46,083 nt of DNA, from assembly GCA_001724265.1 (NCBI GenBank), contig MEDY01000242.1, positions 1 to 46,083 of the forward strand, given 5' to 3'. The notes under the pieces were generated by a model, which was not told the DNA's origin, searched no databases, and was given only the letters and a program-made list of their open reading frames with translations. Positions 1,444-38,481 of this stretch are shown one piece after another (position 1 is the first letter of the stretch; each line of letters opens with the position of its first letter). The DNA is from Rhizaria sp. SCN 62-66. Lineage: Eukaryota. Position numbers and translations under genes: made by a program.

Positions 1444-4400
1444 TTAAGTATAAGAAGCAGCACAAGTGGACTCAGCTACCGCGGGTACTTCCGTCCCTAT
1501 GGACTCACTCCTCGTCGCTGTCTCTTCAGCAACTGCGGAGTCAGCGGCAGGGGATGCAGAGCCAGCGGCATCTGCGGCGGCAGAGTCAGCGGCAGTGGCG
1601 GTGGCAGTGGCAGCGGCGGACGGCTGGTCCTGCTGCCTAGCCCTGCGCGGCGCCAGCCTCAGCACGCGCGGCGTCGCGGGCGCGGACCGCGGCGCGTCCG
1701 GCGGCGACGGCGCCGGCGTGTGCTCCGGCCCCAACTCCTGTCCGCTGTCAGTCGCAGCTTTGTCGGTCTCGGCGTCCGCTTTTGTCTTCGGCACTTGTCC
1801 AGCGATATTCGCGGCAATACCTGCGCTTAAACTCGCACTAGCGCCTGAGACAAAACTCGTCACCGTCTGATCGCTCGCGACCATCGCCGCAGAAGCAGCA
1901 GCAGCAGCGGCAGCTGTGGGACTGGGCGTCGGTGTGGGAAATCGGTCCGGCAGCAGCAGGTGCACGCGCGACCGCGGCCGCTGCGAGCCCCCGAGCGGCT
2001 GCGCCTGTGCCGGCGCCGTCGGCGGCGTGGGCACGAGCGCTGCAGTCGGAGCCGCTGCAGCCGGGACTGAAGCCGTCGCAGTTGCCGCGGCGCTGGCCTC
2101 AGTGGCGTGTGGGGACGGCGTCGGGCGTACGTTGAACTCAGAGGAGTCGACCGCGACAGACGCGGCGTCCTCAGTCAGTGCGGAGTCTTCGGCCGAAGAC
2201 GCGGCCGCCGTGGGCGAGGGGTCGACTGCGAGCGAGGCGTCCGCCGACGCAGACGGCAGAACCACAGTGATGCCGGCCGGCGCAGCGAGAGCAACGGGGG
2301 CCGCAGCAGGAGCACTGTCGCGGCCGGTGGCGCCCGCAGCCACAGCCGCAGGTGCGGCCCTCAGCGACTCCGGCACAGGCGCAAGAACTGACACGGGCAC
2401 ATAAGCTGCGTCAATCATAGTCTGCGTACCAGGGTTAGGCTGGGGCGGTGCAGAAGCGCTGTCGACAGGAGCGTCGGTCCAGGGCTCTTTCAAAAGGGAC
2501 AGGTCTAGCGCTGAAGCTGAGTTAAACACGGAGGCAGACGCTGTCGCGGCGTTTGCAGACTCTGGAGAGGCACTCAGCAAACAGATGTGATCCGCGGCCG
2601 CTGTCTCCGGCGCACTTGCGCCGGCGTCATAAGCGCTCTTGGCAGTTGCACTGCTGTCACCGCCGGGAGCGTCCGGGTCAGAAATAGCTGTTGCAGGTGC
2701 GACATTGTCTCTCTTATTGTCTTTAAGAGGCGACGCCTTGGGCACCGGCACGTCCCGCCACCCGCTGCCACGCAAGCCCGCCAACGAAGTCGTGGAGCTG
2801 CCACTCGCGCCCGCGCCCGCACCCGCGCTCGAGTTCGCGGTCGAGTACGCGGTCGAGCCGGCTCCGCTAGAACTACCGGGGCGTGTGCCCTTGCGCGGCA
2901 ACTGTGCTGCAGCGGAGCCAGAGCTAGCCTTCCGGGGACTGGCGCTCCCGCCGTTTGCAGCAGCACCGGCGGCAGTCGCGGCTGCCGCGTTCGCAGGCCC
3001 AGATGCAACCTTCGGGTTCGACCTCAGCGCTGCCGCAAGCGACACGTTGCTCTGTGACCGCGAGAACATGCTCCCACGGGACTGTCGCCGAGGACTGCTT
3101 GCGTCGGCGCCTCCGTAGAGCGCCGCCGCGGCCCCCAGGCTCGAGGCGCCGATCGTCGCAGCCGCTGCCGGCGGGGCCGGGGAGGCGGCGCGGCCGCCGC
3201 CGACCGTGGCGTGCCGCCGCAGCGACTGCTGCAGCGACGCTGCGGGCGCTGCCACGCGCCTCTGCGGGCCTGCAGCTGTCGTAGCCGTTGTACTTGTCGG
3301 CGTCGGCGTCGTCGTGGTCGCTGTCGTCACAACAGCGGCAGCATCAGCAGGAGAAGGCGCTTCAGTGGCAGTGCTGTTGCTTGCGGCCACAGCGGGGGGT
3401 TTCTGCTGTGCGCCGCCCGCTGCGGGTACGAGAGCGGTAGGCGGCAGCGAGAACCCCGTCTTGAGCCTCCTCAGCGTCGACATCAGGCCACCCTTCACGG
3501 GCCCAGCACCGAGCCCAGCGCCGGCGCTGTTGCCGCTCGCGTTGCCACCCGCCCCGCCCTTGCTGTGCGTCTGCGCGGCATGAGTGGCAGCGGGGGCGGC
3601 GGTCGACGGCGACGGCTGCAGCAGCAGCGTGCTGGGCTTGGTCAAGCTGCGCCGCCGGTCAGCCGTCTTCTCTGCAGCCATCGCCGCAGCCTTACCGTCC
3701 TTCTCTGAGGAAGCAGAGTCGGCCTCCGCAGCAGCAGCGGCCCTGGCTGCCTTGGCCGCCCTCGCCGCCGCGACCGCAGTGGCGGCAGCGCGCGCCTTCT
3801 CCGCGGCCGCGAACGCGCTCTCATAGACGGTCTTGACGGCCACGGCCTCGGGCAGCGTCAGCGGTAGCGCGCGCGCGCGGTGGTAGAAGAGCAGCGGCGC
3901 GTCGGGGTCCACGCCCGCCGCGAACGACGCCAGCGCTGCGCGCGCCTCGGCCGCCGCGCCGGCCTGCGCGAGTGCGTCGGCCGCGGCGGCCAGCGCGGTG
4001 CCGGCCGGCACGGAGCCCGCGGCTGCGGCGGCGCGCGCGACGACTTTGACCATGACGCGAAAGCGCGCGGCCGTCAGCGCGTTCGAGTTGGCCGCGGCCG
4101 CGAGGTCGAGCACGGGCACCGGGGCGCTCAGAGTCGCAGGGACCATCGCGGCCGGCGCAAGGAACGCTGTACCATCGCAAATTTTGGCACATGTTTCAGT
4201 GTTTGCCTTGCCGGTGTGGGCGTGAGTGCCATTGTGAGCATTACTGACCGTGCTGTTGCTGCTGTTGTTACCGTTACCGCCGGCGGCGATGTACGCCGCG
4301 GCGGCAGCTCTGGGCACTGGAGGCGTGTTGGCGAGGCGCGCCAGCGCCGCGTCGCTGAGCACCGGGTAGGGGCAGGGGAAGCTCGCCGTGTCGCGCGCGC

Positions 4401-7400
4401 TCACTGCCACGGTCACGCAGCGTCGCTGCCATTGGCCGGGGCTGGGCTTGCTCCCGCTACGAGCACTCGCACTCGTGGTGTTGAGATCAGCGTTTGGGCT
4501 AGAGTTCGTGATCGTGAACGTCGAATCTGCGTCTGCGTCCGCATCAGTGTCAGTGGCGAGAGGTGCGCGCGCGCGTGCAAGCAGCAGTGCGACGTGGGAG
4601 GGCGGCCAGAAGCCCGGCACCGGCATAGGCAGCTGCACCAGCGGCACGTGCGCCGGCATCCGGCTCTGTGCAGCAGCTGGGCTGTGGGCGCAACCGTGAC
4701 TGCGCGCAGCAGCGGGGGCGAAGCGGCCAACGGTGATGTGCGCGACCTTAGCCCAGACGGACTGCGCGCCCGTGCCGGGGCCAGACACGGTCACGCTCGC
4801 AGCCGCGGCGGCTGCGGCAGCGGCAGCGGCAGCTGCAGCGGCAGAGGAGGAGTAGACGGCCGCGGTCTGAGTGCGCGCTAAGGGGCGCCGCAGCGCAGGC
4901 GCCGCAGCAGCAGCTGAGTCGACGGTAACAGCACTCGCAGTGGGCGCACTCGTCGTAGCGGTCGTCATTGCTGTTTTCGCGTCATCAATATCGCCGACGC
5001 GCGCTTGGGAAAGCGACCTCTGCGCAGTCTGCTGCTGCAGCTGCGGTTGTTGCTGCTGCTGCTGCTGCTGCAGGTGTTGCTGCTCTTTGAGTGCGGGTAG
5101 CGGCGGGCGCTCCGCGAGAACCGTGTCAAGTGTGGCATCAAGCAGCCCGCGCATGAAGGGCATCTTGTAGGCCTGAACCCAGTAGCGGTGCACGCTCTCC
5201 GCCTCCGACGGCGACATGCCCTGCGGCGTCAGAGTGTCTGCGCGCACGATGCCCTGGCCCAGGTTGGTGTTGATCTCCAGCAACACCGCCTGCAGCAGAG
5301 AAAGAAAGGCGAAATCAAGGGAAGTAGATAACGTTTGGGATGATGAGGGTATGAAAATAGCGTGTTCGTACAAAAAATAATAATTTGAATAATACAAAAA
5401 TTGAACTCGTTCATCTCAATACTCGTACCTTGTTTGCGTCAGTGTCGTAGAGAAAGTCGTAGCCGAGCATCTGAAAGCTCACACGCGCGAGACCATACGG
5501 GATCAGCGCGCCGTTTTCCAGCGCCAAGGCGACTGCGACACGAGTGAGAAAATAAAAATAGAGTTAAAACAAATAAAGTGGGTAAAATATGGTCGGTATA
5601 TGTGTGAGGATTTGGTCAGTAATACGGATTAGCAGATAAAGATTTCGTTTTCGTCAGGTCCAATGAACGTACCAGTGTCCCTGATGATGGGGACGAACTC
5701 TGCAAAACAGGCGTCGACGAAGGCGGGCGCCAGCACCTGGTTGCCAAGCCGGTGCGCGAGGTACTTGCTCACGGTCGCGTCGAACCCCGTCCCCGCGGGC
5801 TCGTAGGGCGCCTTGCTGTGGTACAGCTTGAACAGCCGGCACACGTGCAGCGAGTAGCCGCCGCCTAAGGCGACCGCGCTGCTCTCACCGCCGGCGCTCG
5901 CGCTATCGTGCAGACCATTGGTTGCGCTCGCGCTCGGAGCGTTGCCCGTGTTCACAGAGTTGTTGTTGTTGTTTGTAGCGACAGCGTCATACACAACTGT
6001 AGCGTAGACACGGAAGTGGACCTTGTAGAGCTTCCCGCGCATGAGCGGCGCGCCCGAGTCCGAGGGAAAAGCGGACCGCGCGCGCGCCGACACGTCCGCC
6101 GCAAGCCGCGCCGCGACCGCGGGCCCGTAAGTCTGCACCGCCAGCGCCGCGGGCGGCGGCAGCTGGCCCAAAGCGGCCGCAGTCGGCGACGGGGCCGCGC
6201 TGGACGCGGCGGAGCCCGTGGCGGAGCTCGGGGCCAAGCTGCCGAGGCCTGCAGTCTGCCGCCGGGGGCTATGAGAGCCAGAGCCAGCGTTGCGCGGGCT
6301 CGGGGCGGGAGCTGGGGCAGCAATGCTCTCGCTCACATGCGCTTCAGTCGCCGACGCACTCGCCGCCGTCGTTGTCGATGTTGTCGTCTAAGGCACAGAA
6401 GTCATCGTCTTGCTGCCATCAGACGCAGAAGTCAACGGCTTGTTGCCATCAGACGCAGGTTCCTTACTCTCAGGTGTGGGCGCTTTGCCTTGCGATGCGA
6501 ACGCCTCCGCAGGCGTGTTGACATCCAATCCGCGCAGCGGCGGGATGTAAAAAGGCTGCTGCTGTTGCTGTTGCAAGCCAAAAGCTCCGCCCTTGCCATT
6601 AGTCTTCTTGACCGCCCCAGCAGCAGCAGTAGCCGCAGCAGCACCACCAGCGACCTGCTGCTTCCCCGCTGCGCCGTTGGCATTGCCACCGCTGCCCGCG
6701 CTGCTTGTGTCCGCCGCAGCGGTGTCGACGAGCGCTGGCCGCAGCACGCCGTCGAGCGCGGTGTCGCCCGCGCCACCGCAGCGAGCGGGCACGCTCTCGG
6801 CCTTGGCCGTGGCGCCCAGGAGCTCGCCGGGCACCGAGAGTGGCGCCGCGACGTACTCCTGGACGACCCAGGCGGCGTAAGGCCCGCCAGGAATGGCGTC
6901 GGCGCCCGCGCGGCAATGCGCCAGCACTGACAGCGCCAGCCGCGGGTCGCGCGGAACGACCAGCACGCCGCGCTGCTGCTGGCCCAGCGAGGGCTTCAGC
7001 AGCACAAAGCCGCGGGACGGGCAGCCCCAGTCGCCGCAGCACGCGGTCGCCGCCGCTGTCGCCGTCGCCGCTGATACCGCCGCTGGTGCTGGTGCAGCTG
7101 TTGTGGAGTGACTGTGCACGGGGCAGTGCGCGGGCCTGTAACTGCGGCCGCGGCAATGCGCGGCGGGCATGGGCCGGAGCCCGAAGCGCTTGGGCACAGC
7201 GGCCTGGTTGGCGGCGCCGGGGTGCGTCAGCCACTGGCGCACCGTGCAGCCGTCGGCGTCGGTGTTCGCGCAAGCGCACTCGGCTGCAGCGGACGCAACC
7301 GATGCGGGCTGGGCAGCCGCGGCGGCGTCAGGCCTCGGGGAGGAGTCGGTGTTGTTGCTGTTGCTGTCATTGCTATGGTCGTTGCCAGTCTTGCCATCGC

Positions 7401-9533
7401 TGTCACCCTGTTGCTGCTGCTGCTGCTGTAGTTTAGAACCTTGCTTTGCACTCTGCTTAGCAGGATCTTCCCCATTCTTGCCACTCGCACTCGAATTTGT
7501 CGTCGCCGCGTTGCTGTGGCACGGGGACCCCGCGTCGAGGCGCACGCGCGGCGGCCGGCGCGGCGCGTAGTCGCAGTCGATACCCCTGCCGCTGGCGCCG
7601 AGCGGGCCCGTCGAGGCCAGCAGCCGCAGCAGCGTCGCCAGCGCCGCCGGGTCGTCGGTGAACTCGGACAGCGGCGTGCCTCCGCGCGCGCCGGGACTAA
7701 CACCAGCGCCTGCTGTGCTGACAGTGACAGTCGTTGTTGTCGTCGTCGCAGCCGCTGTCTTGTTGCCACTCGCACTGTTCACACTCGCGCTGCCGTTGCC
7801 GTTGCCGGCACTGCTGTGCGCAGCCGAAAGCGCCTGGGGCGGCAGCGGCGGCGGCGGAGGCTTGACCGTGAGCGCGCGCGTCCAGGGGATGTAGGCGCGG
7901 CCGTGGCGGCGCAGCAGCGCGTCCATCTTGACCTTGTCGCCGAGGATCGTGGTGTTGGCGAGCCCGTAGGAGCCGCCCATCGCGAGCGCCAGCCACGGGT
8001 GCGCGCCCAAGCCCAGCGCCGCTGGAGCCGGAGCCTGGGACTGCTGCTGCTGCTGCTGCTGCTGTAGCTGCGCCGACGGCTGCTGTTGGCTTTGCTGCGG
8101 CTGCGGCTGCGCGGCCGCGTTTGACGCAGCCGCAGCAAAGGCGGCGTTGCCGCCCGCGGCCACCAATGCGATCGGCGGCGGCAGTCGGCCGGTAAGCGCG
8201 GGCGTAGTGCGCAGGCCGCCCGTGGGCGGGGAGAAGAACTGCTGCGAGGCCAGCGCCGTCGCGGGCGCGGGCACTGCGAAGGGCTGCGGGTGCCGCCCGA
8301 ACGCCAGCAGGGGGTTGCGGCTGGCTTCCACTGAGGCTGAGGCCGAGGCTTCAGTCGCAGCACGGCCGCCTGGCCCGCCGCCGTCGGGGGCAGCCGCAGC
8401 GCTGAGAGTCCGGTCGGCGTCCTCGACGTCGCCGTCGTCGTCGCTGCTGCTGTCGCCGCTGCTCGCATCGTCGTCGTCGTCGTCATCGTTGTTCTCTTCG
8501 TCGCCGGAGTCGGCGTCCTTGTCCCTGACTCTGCCCAGGTACGCGGCCGCCGCGCCCGCCGCCGCGTGGTCCCACACGCCCGTGAACGGTAGCCCCACCG
8601 CGGCGGCGCCCGCAGCGCTGCTGGCCGCGCTCGCGCCGCCACCGCCCGCCGACTGAGACTGAGGTTGCGGCTGGGACTGCGGTCCTGGGGGGGCGGACAC
8701 GGACCTGTAGGCGTTGGCGCCCGTGAGCGCAACGGCGGCGGCCGCCAGCGCGTGCCCCGCTGCCGCCACCGCCACACTCAGGCCCGTGCCGGCCTTTGCA
8801 GTCATGGACTCGCCGGAGCTTGAGGTGGGAGCAGACGGGGCACTGGAGCCGGAGGGCGACGGCGGGGGCAGCGGCGGCGCAGCGACTCGACTGCCGTGGC
8901 TGCTTTCGTCGCCGTCGTCGTTGTCAACAAGCACAACCACAGCCCCCGTCGCAGTCGCGTCGGACTGAGCGCTGACGTGGGCGTGTGCGCTCCCGTTCGC
9001 CGCTTTCCCTTTCACAGCCGCCGCCGCCGCAGCTGTCGCTGCAATCGATGCAATCGGCGCGACTCCAGCGGCGTGGCTGCCACTGCCGCTACCGCCGCCC
9101 GTCGCACCCGCGGCCCGAGGCGCGACAAGCGCGCCGAGCCTGGCCCCCAGCGCGGCGGCGTCGAACGCGGCGGCCGCGCGCTCGCCGGCGCGCAGCGCAC
9201 GCTGCCGGTGGACCTCGGCCAGCAGGCGCATGGCGCCCTTGCGCGGCCCGCCGTCGGTGTACACCAACAGCAGCGGCGCGCGGACCACGGCGGGCGCGCG
9301 CGTAACGGCAAGCAGCACGCGGCCGAGCGCGTCGAGCGTCTGCAGCGGCGCCGAGTTGGGCCGCGGGGTCAGGCGGCGCAGGCTGAGCCCGCGCGCGGCG
9401 AGCGCCGCGGGCCGCCGCGACTCGAGCAGCGCGGCGTCGATCTCGGCCGCGAAGTAGAACGATGCGGGCAGGTAGAACACGTGCGGGTCTGCGGCGACGG
9501 TGGAGACGAGCGCGCCCACATTACTGCCGCCGC

Positions 9534-9564
<31 letters not shown>

Positions 9565-9822
9565 ACTGCTGGTTGGCGTAGCTGTCGTGCTGTTGAGGTG
9601 ATTGTTGCTGTTGTTGTTTGTGGGGCGGGGGGTCGCGGCAACGGGAACAGCATAAACGGCTAGCGGGGCAGCGGCAAAGGCCGCTGTGGACGCAGTCGCA
9701 GCCGATAAGCCGGTCGTCGTCGCGGCCGTCGCCACTGCTGCCGCGGCGGCGTGCGTTACTCCTCTCACGGCCACGGGGGCAGCTGCCCGGGGCTGCGAGG
9801 GCGCAGGGGCAGGCTGAGACAT
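1444..9822 (-). CDS. Tubulin-tyrosine ligase-like (TTL/TTLL, ATP-grasp) protein, ~2699 aa; exons 9822-5673, 5532-5429, 5289-1444; one in-frame TAG at 6390-6388
   Basis: TTL motifs occur in the expected order: LGDKVKM...YIPWT, LLKPSLGQQQRGVLVV, WVVQEYVAAPL, KVHFRVY, SFQMLGYDFLYD, LLEINTN. ORFs 10062-6388 and 6336-5629 are in the same frame across a TAG. Two GTACG..CAG introns (5672-5533, 5428-5290) join the last motifs in frame. Ends in TAA TAA. The start at ATG 9822 is inferred from where GC-rich coding begins; subfamily not assigned. Confidence 0.85.
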
Positions 9823-11316
9823 CGCTGCGTGGCTGAGGCTCAGTGAGGAAAAAAGAAAACACAAGGGCCAAGTCAAGCGACTGGCGTGGGGGAGCGCGCG
9901 GGCGGGCGAGGGGCACCGCCAAGGAGCAGCCTGTAGGGGTGATATCATAGCGGAATTGTTAATCGGGCGTCCCGAACGATGGTGTGAGTGTAATAGAGAA
10001 TAAACAAGGGAATAAATAGACTTACACGCCAGATATACAAGGTACATCACAAGTATTGACATGAGTAGCCGTTATGCGTTGCTGGAAGTGGGTTTTCACA
10101 GCATTGTGAGATGCTGTTTAAAAGCAGGGCATCCCACGATGCAGTTATGTATCTACTGATGCACAGAAGATGTTACAGACATAGGAATAGTAATTCGTAA
10201 AAGAAAAACTCAATTTGTTCAAGATAACCCAGCCATAGTGTCAGTGACGGAGCATGCATTGATATTTCGAACTCTCAAAACAGCCGTTCTGGTGAGCCAG
10301 TCTTGCCACACAACGGTCATGAGGTACAAGATTTCAGGAAACAGCGTGTAACATAGGATTTTTAACTTTTAATGGTTTCAAAACAACCGTTAACACACCT
10401 AAGCTTACAGTTTAAAGCATGCAGATCTATTAATTCCCAAACCCTGTTGTTGAATGGCGAGATATTCACTGTACGTGTGACGGAATGCCACTGTGTCAAT
10501 GGACAATATCAGCAGATTCGACCACATACTCGCAACAATACGGCCAAGATAACAGTATTGAGAAAGGCACATAGTGCCACGTTATTGTTATTTAACGGTA
10601 CTTGTTAATTAAGTTGAATAAGCCTTGTTTGATACTACAGGTAATATGAGAGCATCATTAGTCCATTTCGCTCAGTTTTACTATTCATGTTGCGATGCAA
10701 TCACAGTTAAAGCTTTTCAAGATAAAAAGGACTACGTGCCGCAAGAAATTTACATGAAATAAACTATGCGCGCTCAATTTCTTCAGATGCATTAGTATAC
10801 ACCCTTAGAGCCTGGTTATGCACTCACTTACACATCGTGTCACGTTGCGACTTCCGGTTCAAATAGAGTGCAGTTCATTGTAACAAGTGCTAACCAATAT
10901 GGAATATCGATTTTTATTCATATTCAGAGTACATGTTTAACAAAATAGACGAATTTAAGACAGAGAAAAATATGTCTTCAAAATATCGTGGTAACAGAGC
11001 AGAAGTGAACGGCGGTTGAGTAATCCTTTTAGTCGACCGACGGGCTGAGGGTTGTCACCGACCGTGGTGGTGTTGGGGGGTGGGCGACGTGGCTCTATAA
11101 TTGGCCATCAAGCTTCATGTGCGTGCTGCTCTAAAGAATGAAACTTTGCATGCAGCAGCTATAATGTAGAATTTTCTTTCTTTTCACTGACTTTTGTGAC
11201 TTTATCTCGATGAAATCAAAGTGAAATCCCTCATTTTAATCTCACGTGCGCCCTTCCTTCTGCTCCCTTACCTCGTCCACCTCTTCCCGTTCGTGCGCGC
11301 ACCAGAAAGAGCCCCG

Positions 11317-13434
11317 ATGCGCCTGTTCCTGCGCTACGTTGCTCTGGCCCTTCTGGCTGCGGCTGGCCTGGCGTCCGCCGCGCCTGGCTCGCACGTCGTG
11401 GACCACAGCGACGTCTTCGACGCCGACAACTACTTCTCCGACACCCCTGTCGTCCGCGAGTGCGGCACCGAGATGTCCATCACGGACGTCAACCCGGCCT
11501 TCGCGTACGCCACCGTGCCGACCGAGGTTGTGGTCACCGGCTGCAACCTCGGCGGCGGCGACTGGACGTCGACCGTGCACATGCTCAACGTCGCGTGCAC
11601 GGTGACCGAGGCCACCGAGACGCAGATCAAGTGCAAGACGGGCGTCACTGACACCGCGGCGGGCCTCGGCGCCGTCCAGGTCACGCGCGCCAACGACGAC
11701 ACGGGCGCGTCTGAGTCGGTCTCGCGCCGCAACATGTTCATGTACTATCAGCCCAAGGTGGAGTCTGTCCACCCCGCCACCGTCGACGCCAAGGCCGGCG
11801 CGACGATCCGCCTCGTCGTCTCGGGCATGTACTTCGACGACTACGAGGTCTCGTTCGCGGGCGCCAAGGCCACCAAGGTTGAGATGAGCGAGACGTTCAT
11901 GCTCGTCACGCTGCCCGAGGCCGGGCTCACCGTTGGCTCGCTCGACATCACCATTTCCAACGCTATGCTCACCACGCCCGTGCTCGTCAAGAGCCGCGCG
12001 CTCGCCGTCACGGACTCCGGCGCCGAGCCCTTCGTCAAGTCGCTGCTGCCGACCTGGGCCGTGGGCCCCGTGCCCGCGCCCACGTTCAAGCTCGTCCTGG
12101 GCCAGGTCCCCGCTGACGTTGCCGCAGTGTCCGTCACCTTCGCGGGCATCAAGGCCAAGAACGTCAAGCTCGACGCCGCGACTGGCGTCATCACCGGCGC
12201 CACCCCCGCGTGTACCGCGGACACGTGCCTCGGCACGCGCCTCGTGCTAGTCTCGCTCGACGGCAAGGAGGTCGGCTCCTGGACCTTCACCTACCTCGCC
12301 GGCCCCGTCACGGGCACGGCCAACGTCTACCCCGGCCCCGCGCTGCCGTGCAACTACAACCACGACATGCTCGTCACCTTCGCCGGCTTCGACGGCAACG
12401 TCCCCGCGCTCATCAAGCTTGGCGCCTGGGAGCCCGAGGGCGAGCACAACCTCGTCGTCGTCTCCAACGGCTTCCGCTTCGACCTGGCCGCCGCCGACGC
12501 GCCCTACGCCTCGGGCGCGGTGCAGCTCATCGACGACGCCGGCAACGTCGTTTACGACGGCGGCAAGTTCACGCACGGCCCCGCCGTCGACGGCGTCGCC
12601 ATCACGCGCGTCATCTCGAAGCCCATGGAGATCGGCGCCGAGACGGCCGTGACCTTCTACGGCTACGGCTTCACCGAGCACGACGTCAAGTCCTTTGTCG
12701 CCGTCGGCGCGCGCACCGCCGCCGCGGCCGCCGGGGGCAGCGCCGACGTGACCCTGGACCTCACCACTGCGGGCGTGACGCAGTCGCGCGCGACGGGCTA
12801 CCTGACCGACTGCTCGGACTTCGAGGACCGCTGCCAGGCGGGCTCCTTCGACGTGGCGCTCTTCAACTCCAAGAACGAGCGCGTCGCCGTCGTCCCGGGT
12901 GCCGTCGTGCTCCAGTACAACAACAACTTCGGCATCCTTGCGTCCTACACCTTCCTCGCCTCGGCCAAGGACAAGACTCTCAAGGCCGTCGCCGCCTTCG
13001 CCGCGGCCGCCGCCGAGCTGACTGCTGTGCCCGCCGCGCGCGTCGCCGCGGGCACAGTCGCGGGCGACACGTTCACGGTGCAGGTGCTTCCCGCGCACGG
13101 CTCCATCCAGCCTGACGCCGAGACTCTGGCCGACAGCATCGAGGTCCTGGTCGCGGACGAGCTCTCGGACCTGCACAAGAAGGTTGCCGGCGTGGCCACG
13201 GTCGTGGGCGAGCGCCAGACGCTGCGCCGCTGCGGCGCCAACGACTACCGCGTCAAGTGCGGCAACGACGACGGCGGCAGCGGCGGCGACGACCACACGT
13301 GGATCTACGTCTGCGTCGGCATGGTTTGCGCCGCCATCGTCGCCGGCTTCGCCATCTACGTCTGCAAGAAGCGCGCTGACCAGCGCCGCGCCGTCGGTAT
13401 CCTCGACGATCACTACTCGCAGATCAACGAGTAA
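11317..13434 (+). CDS. Type I membrane protein with tandem IPT/TIG (Ig-like) domains, 705 aa
   Basis: Signal peptide MRLFLRYVALALLAAAGLASA. Repeated IPT-like starts (ITDVNP..EVVVTGCNL; VESVHP..IRLVVSG; VKSLLP; ITRVIS..VTFYGYGF). One hydrophobic helix WIYVCVGMVCAAIVAGFAIYVC followed by KKR, then a short tail ending YSQINE. Strong C/G-ending codon bias; TAA stop; no introns seen. Confidence 0.85.
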   Translation: MRLFLRYVALALLAAAGLASAAPGSHVVDHSDVFDADNYFSDTPVVRECGTEMSITDVNPAFAYATVPTEVVVTGCNLGGGDWTSTVHMLNVACTVTEATETQIKCKTGVTDTAAGLGAVQVTRANDDTGASESVSRRNMFMYYQPKVESVHPATVDAKAGATIRLVVSGMYFDDYEVSFAGAKATKVEMSETFMLVTLPEAGLTVGSLDITISNAMLTTPVLVKSRALAVTDSGAEPFVKSLLPTWAVGPVPAPTFKLVLGQVPADVAAVSVTFAGIKAKNVKLDAATGVITGATPACTADTCLGTRLVLVSLDGKEVGSWTFTYLAGPVTGTANVYPGPALPCNYNHDMLVTFAGFDGNVPALIKLGAWEPEGEHNLVVVSNGFRFDLAAADAPYASGAVQLIDDAGNVVYDGGKFTHGPAVDGVAITRVISKPMEIGAETAVTFYGYGFTEHDVKSFVAVGARTAAAAAGGSADVTLDLTTAGVTQSRATGYLTDCSDFEDRCQAGSFDVALFNSKNERVAVVPGAVVLQYNNNFGILASYTFLASAKDKTLKAVAAFAAAAAELTAVPAARVAAGTVAGDTFTVQVLPAHGSIQPDAETLADSIEVLVADELSDLHKKVAGVATVVGERQTLRRCGANDYRVKCGNDDGGSGGDDHTWIYVCVGMVCAAIVAGFAIYVCKKRADQRRAVGILDDHYSQINE

Positions 13435-13779: not shown

Positions 13780-16700
13780 TCACCGCTTGCGGTAGTAGAA
13801 GATCTGCCCCAGCACGGCGACGTTGAGAGCGATGCTGGACCAGTACCCCGCGAGGATATTCACGTCGTTCTGCCCCTCCTTGGCCGAGGTCCAGAGGCGG
13901 ATGAGCGAGCCGCAGAGGTTGACCGCAAACGACGTTGGGTTCAGCATGGCCGGGTCCTTGCTGCGGTAGAGCTTGGCCATCTGCGGCACGCGCGAGAAGC
14001 AATAGAGCGCGACTCTAGCCATCTGCAGCGCCCCCAGCACGCGCGGGAAGCGTAGCAGCGGCAGCAACGCCACGGGCAACGCGAGGGTCCCCGCGGCGGC
14101 CAGACGGCCGCGCACACCCTTGCCGAAGAGCAGGAAGGCGACGGCGATGGCGAGGTTGCCCGCGCCCAGCGAGAGGTTCTCGCCGTAGGTGCCAAGCGGG
14201 TGGCCGAGGCGCCACGAGTAGAGCGCGGCGACGACCTGCGTCGCGAGCTCCATGGCAAACATCGGCAGCGACAGCCCCGCCACGGAGCGGTGCGCGAAGA
14301 CCTCCGCGATCTGCGGCGCCTTGGAGAGCAAAGAGCCCAGCGAGATGGCCAGGCCGAGCAGCTTCGCTACGAGCTTGCTTTTGCCGCCGCCGCTGCTCGC
14401 AGCCACAGCGGTGTCAGCGGCGCTCTTGACTGCGTTCGCGTCCTTGCTGCCGGCGACAGCGACCGAGGCGTTGGCGCCAGCGAGCGCAACGGCAGGCTGC
14501 GGCTGCACGGGAACGGCCAGTGACGACGACGACTCGGCCACAGCAGCCGCCGCGGGCGCAGCACTGTGCGCAGCAGCAGCACTGAGAGCGCTGGCACTGC
14601 GAGCGGGCGAGACGCCCGCCGATGCCTGGCGCGCGGCGGCGGCCGCGGCGGCCTTGGTCTTGACCGCGACCGCGACTGGAGACATGCCGCCGAGCCGCGC
14701 AGCCGCCCCAGCAGCGGCAGCGGCGGCGGCGGCAGCGCTCGAGTCGGCGCTGGGGTCGGCCGTGGCGAGCGCCATGTCGGAGATGGCCATCGTGACAAAC
14801 TCGCTCTTGGTGGGCGCGCTCGCAGTGCTGCTCTTTGCGCTGTTGGTATTGTTGTTGCTGAAGCCGGCGGCGGCGAAGGTGGCAGTGGCGGCCGCGGCGG
14901 CAGCGGCGGCGGCGGTCTCCGCATCCGCAGCGGCGGCAGCGGCGGCAGCGGCGGCAACGGCGGCTGCAGCGGCGACGGCGGCGGCCGACACGGACGCCGA
15001 CGCCGACGCCGAGTGCTGCTGCGACGTAGAGAGCTGTGCCCCATGCTGCGAGGCGGGAGCAGCGCCCGCGGCGGCGGCAGCGACGGCGATCGAAGACGCC
15101 GCCGAGGGCACGCGCGCCGGCGCGGGGGGGTTCGGGGACCGCAGGCCGGCGCCGACGCCGACGCCGGCGCCCACGCCAGGAGCAGTGGCCGCCGCGGGAG
15201 TCGCGGCCGAGACGGAGCCGGGCTTGTTGCCCGCGGCGGGCTGCTGTGACTTTACGGCGGGCGCAGGCGTGCGCTGCTGCGAAAACGACTTGAGCGCCTT
15301 GGCGTTTTTCGGCCCCTTGACGGCGGCCTTGTTGCGTCTGCCGCTGCCCTGCCGGCCGCTGACATTGTCAGCCGCTGTCACAGTTGCCTTGCTGCTACTG
15401 GTGTCCGGATTGGCTCTCGAATTCTGGTTTTTGTTGTTCGTATCGGCATCAGCCTTCGCATCAATCTTCACACCGTCAACACTGTCGCCGTTGTCGTTGC
15501 TGCCAATGTCGTCACCGAACGCGCCAGCGCCATCGTCGTCGTCGACGTCAACGCCGTCGTCGCCGTCGCCGTCGACGTCGCCGTCGTCCCCGTTGTCATC
15601 GCAGTCGTCGTCGCCGTCGCCGTCGCTGGCCGCCGCTGCCGCAGCAGCCGCCGCCGCCGCCGCGGCTGCCGCCGCCGCCGCGCCTCCGGAACCGGCACCC
15701 GTGCCTGCGCCCGCAGCAGCAGCGGCGCCAGCACCAGCGACGGTAATCCCGCCGTGGGAGCGACGCGCGCGGCGCCCGCTGCCGCCGCCGTGGAGACCGT
15801 GGCCGTGGCCGTGGTGCACACGAGGGTGGCCGTGAGCAGAGTAACCGTTCGCGGCGCTGGCGGCCGTCGCGCCGACAGCGGGCTCGCCGCTAGCAGAAGA
15901 CACAGCTCCAGCGCCTGCGCCTGCGCCAGTGCCAGTGTCAGAGCTGGCGCCAGCGGCAGCGGCCGCGGCAGCGGCAGCGGCCGACTTGCCCGCGGCGCCC
16001 ATGGCTGTCACGGACCGCCCCGCGCCGCCGCTGGCCGCGCCGAGCCCAGCGCCGCCCTGCATCCCATGTGTTCCGTGGGCGCCGCTGCCGCCCGCGATGG
16101 CCTTGACGCGGGCTGCGGCACCGGACCGCGAGCTGGGGAGGTCCTTGGCGAGCGTGAGCGTGTGCGAGTGGGAGAACGAAGTCAGGTCGCTGCGAGCGAG
16201 CTCGCTGCGGCACGCGCCGCCGGTCGCGCTCGAGTCGCGCCGACTGCCCAGGCTGCCGCAGTCGTCGTCGTTGTCGTTGTCTTCGGCGCCAGCGACGTTG
16301 TGCCCCCGGTCGCGGTCTTGCTCATGCTCACGGTCATGCTCGCAGTCCCGGTCGCGGGCGAGGTCGCCAATGCTCGCACAAGCCCCAAGACCCGCACTGA
16401 CAGCGTTGTTGAGGTGGTGAAGATGGTGATGGTCGTCGTCTCCGTTGCTGTTGCTGTGTGTATTGCTGCTGGTGTGGCGATTGTTGGCCCCCGCGCGCTG
16501 GTGGTTGCTGCTGCGCGGGCTGCCGCTGTGCACGCTGTTGCTCGCGCTATTGACGCTGTTGGCGGTGTGGTTGAGGTTGCGCAGCGCCGCCGCGGCCGGG
16601 GGCAGCCGGTGCGCCGCGGCGACGCTGCCCGCGACCGGGACGGACACGGGCATTGCGAGCGCGGCATCGCTGTGCGTGTCGTTGTTGTTGGCGTTGTTGG

Positions 16701-17706
16701 AGGCGTTGGCCGCTCTGAGCAGGCTGGCGAGCGCGGTGGCCGCGTCAGCGCCGGAGCCCACCGCGACGCTCACTGGACCCATCACACTCGCGGTGCCAGG
16801 GCCAGTGCCAGCGCCAGCGCCAGCACCAGTGCCGTAGCCATAGCCGTAGCCGGAGCCGGCGGCGTTGTTGTGGCCGGGGCCGGCGACCGAGGCGGCGCCG
16901 GAGGTGGAGCCCGAGGCCGAGTGCGACGAGTGCGGCGGCGCCATGGACGGCGCGGCCGACTGCGCGGCCGACGGGGCGACCGACGGGGCAACCGAGGGGG
17001 CGAGCGAGGGCGTCGGCGTGGGCAGAACAGTCGGCGGGGGCAGCCCCGGGAGATGCGGGCTCGCGGGCGTGGGCACGCTGCCCAGCGCCGCGCGCAGCGC
17101 CATCGCGGCAGTCATCGCGCCGTGAACAGAGGCGGCCGCGGCAGCGGCGGTGGGAGCCGTGTTGTCAGCGGTGTTCGCGGCGTGGCTGGTGGTAGTGGTG
17201 TTGTTGCTGTTGGCGAGGGCTGAGAGCGAGGCTGCGGAGGACACTGGGGGCAGGCCGCGGGAGTGCGCGGGCGCGGAGCCAGGAACGACAGCAGCAGCGG
17301 GCGCGGCGGCGAGCGCGGATGCGAGCGCGGAGGTAGCGTTGGCACTGGTGACGAGGGCGGGGCTCGGGGGCGGCAGCGGGGGTCGCGGGGAGCCGGCGCC
17401 GGCGTTCGCGTTGTTGCTGCCAGCGCCAAAGGCAGTGGAGGAGTCAGCAAGCGCGTGCGCGGCAGCGTCTGCCGCGGCGGCGAGCGCAGCCGCCGCAGAC
17501 GCCGAGAGCGATGCCGAGGGCAGCACCGATGACGAGACCGAGCGGCTCTGGCGCGCCTGGCCGCCCGCGTCCGCGCCCGCCGCCGCGGCCGGGAACAGCG
17601 GCGTGCGCGCGGGCTGCGGGGCCGGCGCCTCGGGGGCCGGCGGCGGGGGCGCGGCGACCGCGTCCAGGGCCGCACCCGGGGCCGCGGAGAGCGGGAGCGA
17701 CGCCAT
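13780..17706 (-). CDS. MPDU1: MPDU1-like double PQ-loop membrane protein with a ~1100-aa low-complexity N-terminal extension, 1308 aa
   Basis: The last ~200 aa (about 14375-13780) carry the MPDU1/Lec35 pattern: KLLGLAISLGSLLSKAPQI, SVAGLS, LYSWRLGHPLGTYGE, RVPQM, GSLIRLWTS, LNVAVLGQIFYY. Single open frame from ATG 17706 to TGA. Confidence 0.85.
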   Translation of the reverse strand: MASLPLSAAPGAALDAVAAPPPPAPEAPAPQPARTPLFPAAAAGADAGGQARQSRSVSSSVLPSASLSASAAAALAAAADAAAHALADSSTAFGAGSNNANAGAGSPRPPLPPPSPALVTSANATSALASALAAAPAAAVVPGSAPAHSRGLPPVSSAASLSALANSNNTTTTSHAANTADNTAPTAAAAAASVHGAMTAAMALRAALGSVPTPASPHLPGLPPPTVLPTPTPSLAPSVAPSVAPSAAQSAAPSMAPPHSSHSASGSTSGAASVAGPGHNNAAGSGYGYGYGTGAGAGAGTGPGTASVMGPVSVAVGSGADAATALASLLRAANASNNANNNDTHSDAALAMPVSVPVAGSVAAAHRLPPAAAALRNLNHTANSVNSASNSVHSGSPRSSNHQRAGANNRHTSSNTHSNSNGDDDHHHLHHLNNAVSAGLGACASIGDLARDRDCEHDREHEQDRDRGHNVAGAEDNDNDDDCGSLGSRRDSSATGGACRSELARSDLTSFSHSHTLTLAKDLPSSRSGAAARVKAIAGGSGAHGTHGMQGGAGLGAASGGAGRSVTAMGAAGKSAAAAAAAAAAGASSDTGTGAGAGAGAVSSASGEPAVGATAASAANGYSAHGHPRVHHGHGHGLHGGGSGRRARRSHGGITVAGAGAAAAAGAGTGAGSGGAAAAAAAAAAAAAAAAAASDGDGDDDCDDNGDDGDVDGDGDDGVDVDDDDGAGAFGDDIGSNDNGDSVDGVKIDAKADADTNNKNQNSRANPDTSSSKATVTAADNVSGRQGSGRRNKAAVKGPKNAKALKSFSQQRTPAPAVKSQQPAAGNKPGSVSAATPAAATAPGVGAGVGVGAGLRSPNPPAPARVPSAASSIAVAAAAAGAAPASQHGAQLSTSQQHSASASASVSAAAVAAAAAVAAAAAAAAAADAETAAAAAAAAATATFAAAGFSNNNTNSAKSSTASAPTKSEFVTMAISDMALATADPSADSSAAAAAAAAAGAAARLGGMSPVAVAVKTKAAAAAAARQASAGVSPARSASALSAAAAHSAAPAAAAVAESSSSLAVPVQPQPAVALAGANASVAVAGSKDANAVKSAADTAVAASSGGGKSKLVAKLLGLAISLGSLLSKAPQIAEVFAHRSVAGLSLPMFAMELATQVVAALYSWRLGHPLGTYGENLSLGAGNLAIAVAFLLFGKGVRGRLAAAGTLALPVALLPLLRFPRVLGALQMARVALYCFSRVPQMAKLYRSKDPAMLNPTSFAVNLCGSLIRLWTSAKEGQNDVNILAGYWSSIALNVAVLGQIFYYRKR

Positions 17707-18174
17707 CGGGAAGGAGACGGGTGCTCAACGGCTGCGGGCGCGACACGGACAAGGAGGAAAAACGGATGCCGAGCAGGGAGGATGCGAGATATAGACGTAA
17801 TATCAAGATATTAGGTAGCATTGTGATAAAAGAATGACATATTTGAGAATTTCTGCCGTGGGGGTTGATATCAGGCGGCCGACCGGAGCGGAATCGACTG
17901 TTCTGATGAGGTGTCAAGCCGTGAGGAAAAGTACTCCGGCATCAGTCTTAACGCACGGTTCTAGCAAAGGAATATTACATAAAGAGTGAAACGCACTAAT
18001 ACTAATCGAAAACAAAGTCACACTTCACGACTCACGAATATATGCCCGAGATATTGACCCGCAGAGTTATAACCACCGGACGCAGGGTTCTTCAGCTACA
18101 GCCCCGACCGCCTGTCAGTTGGTGGAGTCATTGCTTCATCCTTTCGTGTCCCAATCTGACCTGTAATCTCCGTC

Positions 18175-19599
18175 ATGGCCACTGACAGCGGACCACAGGG
18201 TCAATCAGTGTATGACTTTGGACAATCCAAATTTGCACTCGAAGGAGATGCTTTTCTGAGCAGTCTGTCCGATGAATTGTCTGGCAGGGGCATCTCGTCA
18301 ACAGCTCTGGCTTCCACCGCTCCCAACCCTTACAGGAGGGAGTCCTGGCTTCAGGTACGATTTTTTTCAAATTTCAACGACTATCCACACTATTCAAAGC
18401 TGCACACCCGCGTCACATCGCTTAGACCTCCAAATATCCCTCGGATCACCCCTCCACCTCGCTCACGTCCGTTACCACTTGCCTCCATTGCCTCCCTTGC
18501 TTCCCCAGGCTCAAATCTCGCGCCTGCTCGCGCTGCCCACCGTCGCCGCGCGCCGCCAACGCATGCTCTCGCTCTTCTTGCTTCCCGCTTTGTCGTCTTT
18601 GGCGTCCTCCCCCGCGCTCTGCGCCTTCGAGGTCGACGCCGCGCTCCGCGACCTTTCCTTCGCAACGTCCGCCGGGTTCTCGCCTGAACAGTCCGTGCTT
18701 GTGCTCTACATCGCCGCGCGCCTCCGCGCCGCGCTCGCGACGGGTGGCGGCAGCTCCGCGCCCGACGCCGCCGCGCTGGCGTTGCTGTTCAAGCGCATGG
18801 TCGCCGCCGCCACCGCCGTCCCCGCGCGCTACGTCGTCTCCCCCAGCAGCAGCAGCACCACCACCACCACCACAAGCAGCAGCGGTAGTCACAGTACTCA
18901 CAGTATTCACTCGCAGTCGCACGCGCTTGCGCTGGGCGCAGACCAGCATGGCGCGCACGGGCACTCGCACGCGTTCGCCGGCGGCGTCGGCCACGGCCAC
19001 GGCCACGGCCATGCCTCTGACTCGTCACACCCCGACCACCATCACCTACACAGTGACGCTGACGCGGCGTACACGTCTGCCGCGGCCGTGGCCGCCGCCG
19101 CCGCCGCCTCTGCCGCGGCCGCCGCGGACGCCGCGAGCGGGTTCCCTCCGTCGCAGCCGCACGCTCACCCGCGGTCGCTGGCCGCCGCGGTCGCCGCCGC
19201 CGCCGCCGCCGCCCGGTCCTTCCGGGCCGCGGCGGCCGCCACGGCTTCGGCCGAGGCTCTGAGCGCGCGCGCCAGCGCGGGCGGCAGCGGCGGCGGGCGC
19301 GCGTCGGCGCGCCTGCCCGCGCACCTGCTGTCGCTCACGGTGCCGCCCGTCGCTGCGCCCCGCAGCGGCAGCGCGCGCGCCGACACGAGCTCTGCGGGCG
19401 TTGGCGGCGCAAACGCGAGCGCAACCGCGGGGGAGAGCGCTGCGAGTGGTGTTGCGACGGCGGCCGCTGAGACCGCGCTGCCGCCGACGCTTACTCTGAT
19501 CGGTCCGCCCGCTCCCGGCTCGATCAGCAGCTCGAGCTCTCGTGGCTACAGCACATCCAGCAGTTCGCGCTCTGCATCATCATCGTCAGCGTCGTCGTT

Positions 19600-19635
<36 letters not shown>

Positions 19636-20905
19636 GTATATCTCTGCGACCTCTGCGTCCGTCTCCGCCGCCTCCGCGGCCACCGCGTCCGCCGCCACCG
19701 CTGCGCAGCAGGAGCGCTCGCGGCGCGCCGCCGCGGCCGCGCGCGCGCTGCACGTGCCAACCTTCGCCTGTCTCATGACGCCGGCTCAGGCGCGCGGACT
19801 GGTCGACCACGTAGCGGGCACCATCTTTGCCCGGCTCGCGCTGCTCAGGGCGCTCTACTCGCCGCGCTTCCGCCGACTCGCCTGCAGCAGTAGCATTATC
19901 GGCAACGGCAACAGCGCTGCGGTGAGTGCAGATAGCAAGCTTAACACGCCTGCGAACGGCAACAGCCCCGGGCTGAGCTCGGCACTGCTGCCGCCGGTTG
20001 AGACGGCGTCCTCCGCCGCCGGTCCCGGCCCGCGCGGGTGGCAGCCGCTCGCCGTCGCGCGAATGGTGCCGCAGCCCCCCGCCGACGCCAACGGCGCTGC
20101 GCGGAGCGCGGGCGCGCACTGCGACGCGACTGGCAGCGCTGCGCAGACCGCGGCTGCGGCTGCGAGTGGTCGTGCTATTAGTGTTGCCGGCACCACGGGC
20201 GGCTTGGCGGCGGCGCGTCGCGGCTTCGTCACTCCGTCAACAGTTCCCTCAAACGCCAACGCTCTGATCAATAACATCAACAGCAACAACCGCACTGCCG
20301 CCCGTGCGACGACTGCGGCTCTGGCGCAGACGGCGGCGCAGGGCCCGCAGCCGTGGTGTTCCCCCGCTGCGGCCGCCGTCGTGGCCCTGACCGTGGGGTC
20401 TGACCCCGCGGCGGCGGCGGAGGCCGACGTCTTCGCGTTCGAGGCCGCGTTCGCCATGCGCGCGCTGTCGGCTACTGCGCTGTACAACGCCGCCGTGCGC
20501 GACGCCTCCGCCCCCGCCCTCTCACTAGCGCAGCCATAGTCGCAGTCGTCCGCGTCTGACTCGGTGGACGCTGCGGCGCGCGCGCTGTCCGCGCAGCTGC
20601 TGCGGCGCGTGGCCTCCCGCGGCGACCCGCTGGCGGCGCCCGTGGCGCAGCTGCTGGGTGTGGGCGCAGCAGTGCACGGCACCGTCGCCGCCACGGCCGC
20701 CGCGGCGCACGCGGCCGCGCAGCGCGCGCTCGATGCGCGGGCCGCGGCGCTCGAGGCGCGGCTCGCCGCCGCCGCGGCTGCACTGGCGCAGGTGCAGGCG
20801 GAGCTCGCGCGCGCGCCGCCGCCCGCACCCGCGCCGGGGGCCGGAGGCAGGCGTGCGGCGGCGGCCGCGGCGGCTGCGGCGGCTGCGGCGGCGGAGGGAC
20901 GCTGA
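18175..20905 (+). CDS. CFAP119: CFAP119/CCDC189-like flagellar central-pair C1a-32 family protein, ~858 aa; exons 18175-18354 and 18509-20905; in-frame TAG at 20537-20539
   Basis: Family-like motifs recognised from memory: DLSFATSAGFSPEQSVLVL, LFKRMV, and TPAQARGLVDHVAGTIFARLALLRALY. Phase-0 intron 18355-18508 (GTACGA..CAG). The frame continues past the TAG into a coiled-coil-like tail (ALDARAAALEARL) ending at TGA. Confidence 0.65.
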
Positions 20906-29760: not shown

Positions 29761-30198
29761 GTCGTGAGGCGGCAGCGACACGCGTGCGCAAGGTTTCGCA
29801 GAGCTGTGAGAGCGGGAGTGGCAGTCAAGGGAGTAACAGCAGCAACGGTTAGAAGTGTGAATTTGTAACGTAGCGCGAACGTCAAAAGGGGATTCAATGA
29901 GATTTAGCACAGTTAATGAAATTTCCCTAACTTAGTGAATATGATTCAGTCCTTGTACTTCAAACAATGCATATATGCGAGGCCTATGCCTCGAAATGTG
30001 GAGTCGAAGCAGGTTGTGGTTGTGCCAGGACAGGCTTAGCGCGGATTGGAATTGTCTATGGTTCTTTAGGACGTCCGTCAGTAGAGCTATCATTTAGCTT
30101 CCAAACACAAATTATTAAACATAGGATATTGTGAAAATTGTATCACGCAAATACTCAATATTCATACAAATCTCCATCTTTTTCTTTTCACTCTCAGC

Positions 30199-36864: not shown

Positions 36865-36925
<61 letters not shown>

Positions 36926-38449: not shown

Positions 38450-38481
<32 letters not shown>

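Follow-up and report, generated by a model that had tools for sequence, protein, structure and literature searches.

Does the TAG at positions 6388-6390 on the minus strand end a TTL/TTLL-like gene, or is it read as an amino acid? The question is posed by a 46,083-nucleotide stretch of DNA, hereafter the window, in which this triplet lies between motifs of what looks like one enzyme. The original prediction took the interruption as the best single argument that UAG is translated, reasoning that termination here would bisect a conserved enzyme. Following the gene, its relatives, the available RNA and the behavior of all three stop codons across the window, we consider it likely that one TTL-like protein is encoded across the TAG at 6388-6390, under a code in which UAG alone has become a sense codon.

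Gene model and family of the TTL/TTLL-like protein

The TTL/TTLL-like gene lies at 1444-9948 (minus strand) and is modeled in three exons from open reading frames, a profile match and motif coordinates. Exon 1 runs from the first ATG at ~9948, which sits at a GC-rich boundary (a second ATG is at 9822), to 5673; exon 2 (5532-5429) encodes (V)ALALENGALIPYGLARVSFQMLGYDFLYDTDANK and carries LGYDF; and exon 3 (5289-1447) carries LLEINTN (5263-5283), which matches the EVN motif of TTL in a profile alignment with PDB chains, and is followed by a TAA stop codon at 1446-1444, all on the minus strand. The exons are separated by intron 1 (5533-5672, minus strand; 140 nt, GC 0.36, GTACGT...CGCAG), over whose junction the profile alignment is seamless, and intron 2 (5290-5428, minus strand; 139 nt, GC 0.35, GTACGA...TGCAG); the downstream GYDF and EIN motifs and their introns had rightly been called intact. 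Counted from the start of the stop-to-stop frame at 10071, upstream of the first ATG, the spliced product comprises 2782 codons, and from the first ATG the protein has ~2740, with very long low-complexity N- and C-terminal extensions.

The TAG is codon 1228 when the exon-1 frame is counted from 10071. On its 5′ side, the conserved N-terminal and central part closes with WVVQEYVAAPL (6838-6870, minus strand) and then SVPGELLG (6837-6814); on its 3′ side, FPSDSG...KLYKVHFRVY (6004-6069, minus strand) opens the conserved C-terminal half, and its Y, K, H, F, R, Y and A are invariant columns in our alignment of relatives (A1). Between SVPGELLG and FPSDSG lies a low-complexity linker (6070-6813, minus strand), and the TAG stands inside it in the context KTMTSVP*TTTSTTTAAS, where GC rises from 0.59 in the preceding 150 nt to 0.69 in the following 150 nt. 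Reading the minus strand confirms that the WVVQEYVAAPL motif, the TAG and the KVHFRVY motif share one frame; KVHFRVY had been placed one base off and occupies 6024-6004.

For this subfamily, the starting premise that these two motifs are normally adjacent did not survive comparison with relatives. All five relatives carrying both motifs are single chains with a low-complexity linker between them, of 85-243 residues against 275 in the window (WVVQEY to YKVHFR), so the gap of ~270 codons is a family trait and not odd in itself. In the AlphaFold2 model of one relative, P0009, the equivalent residues 321-421 have pLDDT <40 and are predicted to be disordered. Alignment A1 marks the linker as a family-specific insertion of variable length, and the TAG of this gene lies in that unalignable stretch.

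Several lines of comparison define the family. A phmmer search with the translation of 5674-7065 returned 16 proteins with E up to 0.001, and their cluster records list metagenome proteins throughout, unnamed or called 'hypothetical protein'. The Pfam TTL model (PF03133) matched 7 of the 15 relatives scanned, four of them above its 20.1-bit cut-off (P0017, 32.9; P0008, 29.9; P0014, 24.7; P0013, 21.0). The same model, which had been suggested as a check on the window gene, found no TTL match in the raw 1480-aa and 1323-aa ORFs or in five unspliced pieces; the TTL assignment of the window gene rests instead on relatives, profile and fold. A profile of six relatives aligned with the spliced window product at 373 bits (E 2.3e-115), one aligned stretch of 112 bits spanning the TAG and another of 228 bits crossing both exon junctions. 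Searched against the PDB, the A1 profile matched TTL chains only (14 of 14 matches, best E 0.01), the C-terminal motif of the window protein aligning with TTL residues 273-336. The P0009 model (pTM 0.66, core pLDDT >85) had TTLL6 (8u3z, 6vzq), TTL (chain F of tubulin-stathmin-TTL complexes) and yeast Pby1 (6y3p) as its best Foldseek matches in the PDB (E 4.6e-10 to ~1e-8, probability 1.00). A TTL-type ATP-grasp fold is thus predicted for P0009, on which it was tested, and the window protein is tied to it by the 373-bit profile alignment.

Like the solved TTL/TTLL enzymes, the window protein has KPS.G..QRG, WV.Q.Y, HFR, GYDF and LLE.N; unlike them, its subfamily has a disordered linker of 85-275 residues separating the hinge motif from the HFR strand, the protein itself carries the long low-complexity extensions, and Pfam scores are weak. 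Motif residues stand in frame on both sides of the TAG, namely the K of KPS.G, the Q.Y hinge, the R of HFR, the D of GYDF and the E and N of LLE.N, which we take to be nucleotide- or Mg-binding by their known roles in TTL. The window protein is co-linear with the metagenome-only relatives P0007-P0012 and with the more distant P0014, P0015, P0017 and P0019 through YTDG.PRK, ILGDK...PWT, KPS.GQQQRG, WV.Q.Y, the linker, PSDSG, YKVHFR.YA, C.LFK.YHS, SKYL, GYDFLYD, LLE.N.N.GQG and YW. Scanning metagenome DNA with alignment A1 yielded two contigs, L001 and L002; a metagenome scan with a single protein query and scans of genome-contig and viral-contig collections returned no relative. The subfamily with an obligatory disordered linker is undescribed, and the members found all come from metagenomes. 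The gene is best read as encoding one long TTL/TTLL-like ATP-grasp protein of this subfamily, whose members always carry the linker after the WVxQxY hinge motif and before the YKVHFRxY strand.

As the original prediction argued, a stop at 6388-6390 would split a conserved enzyme in two, judged by the single-chain relatives and the 373-bit match. It could nevertheless be a true stop, in which case the gene has either decayed recently into a pseudogene or yields only an N-terminal fragment. The triplet is real in all assemblies seen, including the separately assembled L001, which is 100% identical to the window over 2081 bases (4949-7029) with the TAG included; it sits in a linker that evolves fast and could easily gain it by a change from CAG or a similar codon; and none of the listed RNA contigs bridges it. 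Against this, the best-conserved region of the family follows the TAG (228 bits; 78% identity to P0006, a fragment encoded on an 18.5-kb contig of a related organism), the frame stays open past the TAG for 238 + 34 + 1281 codons, and both splice sites are preserved.

In-frame TAGs and gene ends across the window

The case does not stand alone. In 11,465 codons of seven genes there are seven in-frame TAGs, distributed over four genes, and no in-frame TAA or TGA, whereas off-frame stops in the big ORFs of the window number 394 TGA, 120 TAG and 81 TAA. Beyond the TTL-like gene, one TAG (20537-20539, plus strand) falls in the gene at 18260-20905 (plus strand), where reading through extends the ORF from 759 to 881 aa, to a TGA at a GC/AT boundary. 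Two fall in the gene at 21397-29931 (minus strand): one at 23920-23922, in its leucine-rich-repeat part, and one at 29101-29103, within GGTACGTAG. The last three (37523-37525, 37634-37636 and 37889-37891, together spanning 37523-37891, minus strand) belong to the gene at 31655-41107 (minus strand). The TAG at 29101 overlaps a donor-like word, GTACGT, and the frame score upstream of it is weakly positive; its surroundings resemble the 5′ splice-site consensus found locally, which makes it the least certain TAG of the set. At 23920, the boundary recurs in the databases, where protein P0024, from another contig, stops exactly before the TAG and P0025 begins after it; a homologue search with the repeat region around this TAG returned only the organism's own fragments. 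In the protein collection, P0025 and P0023 are recorded on a contig of 220,695 bases from this organism.

Gene ends behave differently from these triplets. All eight genes end in TAA (six) or TGA (two) and none in TAG, and GC drops to 0.31-0.47 at each end, whereas after each of the seven TAGs it holds at 0.57-0.79. The codon-usage frame score is positive in frame 0 past every TAG. Reading TAG as sense merges ORFs into products of 1480, 881, 2844 and 3150 aa; if TAA or TGA is made the sense codon instead, the same coding-frame ORFs gain between 0 and ~130 codons and none are joined. With a sample of eight gene ends, and given a typical share of TAG stops, zero TAG ends is only mildly unlikely.

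This pattern also bears on the true-stop reading. Three other genes hold six further in-frame TAGs, yet neither TAA nor TGA occurs in frame and frameshifts are absent; this is unlike random decay, and the probability that all seven stops are TAG by chance would be ~0.2^7 if stops arose in off-frame proportions. We therefore regard a pseudogene or an N-terminal fragment as highly improbable. The favored account remains that UAG, and UAG alone, would be a sense codon in this organism, with UAA and UGA terminating; the TAG at 6388-6390 would then be read as an amino acid for the same reason. Ribosomes would insert an amino acid at UAG, presumably with a tRNA carrying the anticodon CUA and with an eRF1 blind to UAG. 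Within the 46-kb window ARAGORN detected no tRNA, no Rfam family reached its gathering score, and eRF1 is not encoded.

An ambiguous or partly read-through UAG, acting as a leaky or context-dependent stop, could leave a similar trace. TAG is rare (7 in 11,465 codons), the TAGs are confined to disordered regions where occasional truncation or any residue might be tolerated, and ambiguous codes exist in other eukaryotes. Yet TAG ends none of the eight genes, the +4 bases (A, T, A, T, G, G, A) have no known read-through motif in common, and four very long genes would lose most of their product, which makes partial read-through distinctly improbable. As to the residue that a fully reassigned UAG might carry, all seven sites lie in low-complexity or poorly conserved stretches, and none is anchored to a conserved residue. 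A crude and weak likelihood from flanking context places S first, followed by V, N and T, and Gln twelfth of 20. Translation of UAG, as originally proposed, gains from the behavior of TAG window-wide; the accompanying use of translation table 15, in which UAG means Gln, is unsupported.

Splicing and RNA evidence

The TAG could also be removed or changed in RNA, by an atypical GC-rich in-frame linker intron or by RNA editing, with the code remaining standard. The linker holds material for such an intron, since 81 in-frame GT..AG pairs span the TAG, one of which joins a fair donor, GTAAGG at 6467, to an acceptor at 6342 for a length of 126 nt, and partial loss of the unconserved linker would be tolerable. 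These candidates are unlike the other introns here. All four that are recognizable in the window begin with GTACG, finish with CAG, are 139-229 nt long and have a GC of 0.35-0.45, whereas every one of the 81 pairs has a GC of at least 0.55 and none starts with GTACG; the linker upstream of the TAG contains no GTACG donor, in line with the earlier observation that no AT-rich GTACG..CAG intron spans the stop. Two particular arrangements were considered and rejected. A cryptic intron that starts with the GTAAGG at 6467 and takes the TAG's own AG as acceptor would be 80 nt, which is no multiple of three, and runs into a TGA. A GTACGT within the E-Y-V codons of WVVQEYV is no donor, because the AAPLSVPGELLG that follows it fits the family consensus.

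Assembled polyA-RNA contigs of run X7 lie on the TTL-like gene on both sides of the TAG, upstream at 8179-8651 and 8842-9086 and downstream at 4612-4996. X7 cover is thin in the bin 5068-5734, which holds both introns of the gene, and the uncovered part is not evidence. The comparison used assembled contigs, in which low-complexity repeats gave hundreds of spurious joints and loose ends. Of the other runs, X4 behaves as DNA because introns and spacers are covered, X5 and X8 were matched by short pieces only, and the small shares of X5-X8 are uninformative on habitat.

In another gene, an X7 polyA-RNA contig at 20368-20788 bridges the TAG at 20537 and retains its surroundings without a gap, which argues against an intron there. 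It differs from the window in three letters, of which one (20504) is listed and the other two are not, so editing at this TAG is possible. Removal or editing at the RNA level would, however, require an atypical intron or an editing event at each of seven places, always at TAG alone, and we judge it improbable. The sequences directly show the structure of the gene, the family to which its relatives belong, the linker as a shared trait of that family, and the codon counts; translation of UAG is well supported by them, albeit indirectly.

Origin of the window and comparison with other UAG-only codes

We take the window to be nuclear DNA from a eukaryote, not in culture, that occurs in bioreactor and wastewater metagenomes, with GC-rich exons (~70%) and AT-rich introns and spacers. 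One of its genes, going by its translation, we take to be a mitochondrial-type BCKDH E1-beta, which would imply aerobic mitochondria. Other cellular genes in the window encode an ATG3-like protein and a PQ-loop protein, and there is also a TIG-domain protein, for which the atlas gave no usable taxonomy; a homologue search with the ATG3-like protein returned only fragments of the same organism. Most atlas neighbors of the TTL part are clusters of Nucleocytoviricota. A giant-virus origin, raised by these neighbors, was rejected on the four GTACG...CAG introns, the limitation of polyA-RNA cover to genes, and the cellular BCKDH E1-beta, ATG3-like and PQ-loop genes. The UAG-reassigned Iotanema is anaerobic, whereas the window organism, with its BCKDH E1-beta, is probably aerobic. 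The usual explanation of a reassignment is that AT pressure first removes the codon, which is then captured.

Few nuclear genomes have reassigned UAG alone; the sources consulted name one rhizarian, one fornicate and one green alga besides some ciliates. According to PMC5304391, the rhizarian exLh reads UAG as Leu, with 56 UAA and 15 UGA ends and no UAG end, and Iotanema spirale reads it as Gln; PMC11687900 adds Scotinosphaera (UAG as Ser), phyllopharyngean ciliates and Protocruzia. As far as these sources describe them, the window resembles exLh, Iotanema, Scotinosphaera and the others in having in-frame UAG and, as sole terminators, UAA and UGA (6 TAA, 2 TGA). It differs from the known cases in that its coding DNA is ~70% GC and TAG is rare, at 0.6 per 1000 codons. 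A literature survey, with most subscription journals outside its scope, returned no description of a GC-rich wastewater eukaryote with reassigned UAG.

This is probably a new case of UAG-only reassignment. More tentatively, at a little short of an even chance, it may represent an undescribed aerobic GC-rich lineage of wastewater and bioreactors in which UAG alone is reassigned, possibly not to Gln, and to which the AT-pressure route does not obviously apply. A further UAG-only case would be an independent data point on stop-codon capture, and the value of this one lies in its strongly GC-rich coding DNA and in unusually clean boundaries between GC-rich genes and AT-rich spacers. A third point of value is the still very low usage of TAG, which may mark an early stage of reassignment.

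The relative in contig L002, a more distant one that has the TTL-like gene as well, offers a point of comparison. Its uninterrupted ORF of 1264 codons has no introns and no internal stop and still ends in TAG, unlike the window gene with its two introns and in-frame TAG, and it probably uses the standard code. Gene callers set to the standard or bacterial code cut the proteins of the window organism at every TAG, and P0005, P0024 and P0025 are such TAG-cut fragments in public protein collections.

Layout of the window

Blocks of ~70% GC alternate with AT-rich spacers of ~40% GC over the 46 kb of the window. The blocks are genes, found on both strands and very long, with much low-complexity protein sequence, and they are interrupted by four short AT-rich introns, all of one type with a GTACG start and a CAG end: 5533-5672 (-), 5290-5428 (-), 42448-42630 (+) and 45220-45448 (-). 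These introns are 139-229 nt long with 35-45% GC, compared to ~70% in the exons; the contrast is unusually sharp and the donor uniform across the four recognisable introns. The same DNA is present in bioreactor, wastewater and activated-sludge runs, and the window comes from the nuclear genome of a eukaryote that has not been cultured. Its genes include those for a TIG-domain protein (11200-13434, +), a PQ-loop protein (13780-17724, -) and an ATG3-like protein (44356-45448, -), as well as a well-conserved gene with one intron and a TAA stop (42302-43602, +) that, from its translation, is presumably a mitochondrial-type branched-chain keto-acid dehydrogenase E1-beta. A 377-aa ORF antisense to the latter (42535-43668) was rejected as an artefact of high GC. 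The C-terminal end of a 3150-codon ORF (31655-32600, -) carries a long His/Gly-rich run (HGHGHG..., HSHSH...).

The TTL-like gene and its linker

The original prediction placed a TAG in frame between two TTL motifs, and this is borne out on the reverse strand: WVVQEYVAAPL (6870-6838), the TAG (6390-6388) and KVHFRVY (6024-6004) share one frame. This frame has no stop for 1227 codons, from 10071 to 6391, and after the TAG it continues from 6387 as far as the first intron. Exon 1 ends at 5673 and is followed by intron 1 (5672-5533), exon 2 with LGYDF (5532-5429), intron 2 (5428-5290) and exon 3, which runs from 5289 with LLEINTN to a TAA stop (1446-1444). A separately assembled contig is identical to the window over 2081 bases, the TAG included.

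When 1.84 billion representative proteins were searched by phmmer with positions 5674-7065 as the query, 16 matched with an E of up to 0.001. One is the organism's own fragment, which begins downstream of the TAG, where gene calling under the standard code splits the gene, and another is a fragment from a related organism (78% identity) that runs into an intron at the identical site; the others are 34-62% identical to the window protein. The proposed Pfam check gave a divided answer, as no TTL match was found in the window's raw ORFs or unspliced pieces, whereas 7 of the 15 relatives scanned match Pfam TTL, four of them above the cut-off. With a profile of the aligned relatives, all 14 PDB matches were TTL chains (E 0.01), located at the ...Q.LG.DF..D....LLE.N motif. 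Protein-language-model neighbours of one relative (P0007) are TTL clusters (scores 0.93-0.95), and the AlphaFold model of another (P0009; pTM 0.66, core pLDDT >85) has TTLL6, TTL and Pby1 as its best PDB fold matches (E 5e-10 to 1e-8). The spliced three-exon product, with X at the TAG, scored 373 bits (E 2.3e-115) against a profile of six relatives from which the window sequence was left out. A 228-bit stretch crosses both exon junctions unbroken, which confirms the introns and the earlier claim that they and the GYDF and EIN motifs are intact downstream of the TAG; a 112-bit stretch extends from KPSLGQQQRG over the X to YKVHFRVYA. Profile score, relatives and fold together indicate that the gene encodes a predicted divergent TTL/TTLL-like ATP-grasp protein.

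For this subfamily it does not hold that the two motifs are normally adjacent. WVxQxY and YKVHFR lie 85-243 residues apart in all five relatives that hold both, versus 275 in the window, and four more distant TTL-like members have the same layout; the long gap is thus a family trait. The linker is predicted to be disordered because pLDDT is below 40 over P0009 residues 321-421. Every relative is one chain over this region. In a more distant relative, on a metagenome contig of ~311 kb and ~52% GC, a single TTL-like ORF (4333-8127, +; 1264 codons) has neither intron nor internal stop and terminates in TAG; its organism probably uses the standard code.

Near the TAG, two imperfect 11-residue copies, ASDGNKPLTS(A) and ASDGSKTMTS(V), are found just upstream (6391-6456, -), which suggests that repeats have recently expanded within the linker. 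Downstream, X4, a run that behaves like DNA, has bases other than those of the window at 5885 and 5981, from which we infer that a closely related strain exists; both changes are non-synonymous and affect a low-complexity insertion flanked by VVYD and GGYSLHVC.

Evidence for probable translation of UAG

Seven TAGs (6388, 20537, 23920, 29101, 37523, 37634, 37889) are the only in-frame stops in 11,465 codons, with no TAA or TGA, while off-frame the same DNA holds 394 TGA, 120 TAG and 81 TAA. Reading TAG as sense fuses adjoining ORFs to 1480, 881, 2844 and 3150 aa; in the control, with TAA or TGA as sense, the same coding-frame ORFs gain 0 to ~130 codons and none are joined. Real gene ends are TAA in six of eight cases and TGA in two, never TAG (for the dehydrogenase gene the real end was used, the antisense ORF being left out as it shows no GC fall). 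At all eight ends GC drops from 0.51-0.88 to 0.31-0.47; in the 150 bases after each of the seven TAGs it stays at 0.57-0.79. Codon usage was also scored, with training on parts that do not depend on TAG; every post-TAG segment scores above zero in frame 0 and below zero in both alternative frames. TAG 23920 is reproduced on other contigs, where one protein stops exactly before it (P0024) and another, 99.87% identical and encoded on a 220,695-base contig, begins after it (P0025). A true stop or a pseudogene is most improbable, given an intact and conserved downstream half, a TAG-only pattern over four genes, and random damage that would mostly have yielded TGA.

Removal of the TAG by an atypical intron or RNA editing is unlikely, as seven occurrences would be required, all at TAG only. 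As originally predicted, no GTACG..CAG intron crosses TAG 6388-6390, the linker having no GTACG donor, and all 81 GT..AG pairs that span it in frame have a GC of at least 0.55 (0.35-0.45 in local introns). The local donor consensus GTACGT is spelled by the E-Y-V codons of WVVQEYV (6851-6856, -); its use as a donor is ruled out by the family-conserved residues that follow. Of the seven TAGs, 29101 is the weakest case: it lies within GGTACGTAG (29101-29109, -), which contains the same donor word, though an ordinary intron is improbable there because an AT-rich stretch downstream is absent. In polyA RNA run X7, which has next to no depth in spacers (~6 in X4), a contig at 20368-20788 spans TAG 20537 without a gap; it carries three differing letters, two without a listed position, which leaves some room for editing. 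On the TTL-like gene, X7 contigs lie on either side of TAG 6388, at 8179-8651 and 8842-9086 upstream and at 4612-4996 downstream, and none of those listed bridges it.

Considered together, the window-wide stop statistics, the frame signal and the single-chain relatives, indirect evidence that agrees throughout, make it very likely that UAG is translated in this organism, as originally predicted, although not on the strength of adjacent motifs. Ambiguous decoding or partial read-through would look the same as full reassignment in the window data; we consider it quite unlikely. Within the 46 kb, no tRNA or Rfam family was found and eRF1 is absent.

Lineage and possible identity of the residue at UAG

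Nuclear reassignments of UAG alone have been described in a rhizarian, with UAG as Leu, and in Iotanema, with UAG as Gln (PMC5304391), as well as in Scotinosphaera (Ser), phyllopharyngean ciliates and Protocruzia (PMC11687900). As in those accounts, the window has in-frame UAG and only UAA and UGA as terminators; unlike the cases as described there, its coding DNA is strongly GC-rich and TAG usage very low (0.6 per 1000 codons). The organism is a probable further case. The change is probably limited to its lineage, since the distant relative ends its TTL-like ORF in TAG. No description of a GC-rich wastewater eukaryote with reassigned UAG was found in the literature covered; the organism may nevertheless be one already described.

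All seven TAGs fall in poorly conserved sequence. A naive likelihood over four flanking residues per side at the seven sites, whose positions are non-independent, gives Ser the top score (+2.0), followed by Val, Asn and Thr; Gln scores -4.6. This is a hint that the flanks may resemble those of Ser more than those of Gln; table 15 (UAG = Gln) is therefore not to be assumed. A Ser codon directly follows the TAG at three of the seven sites.
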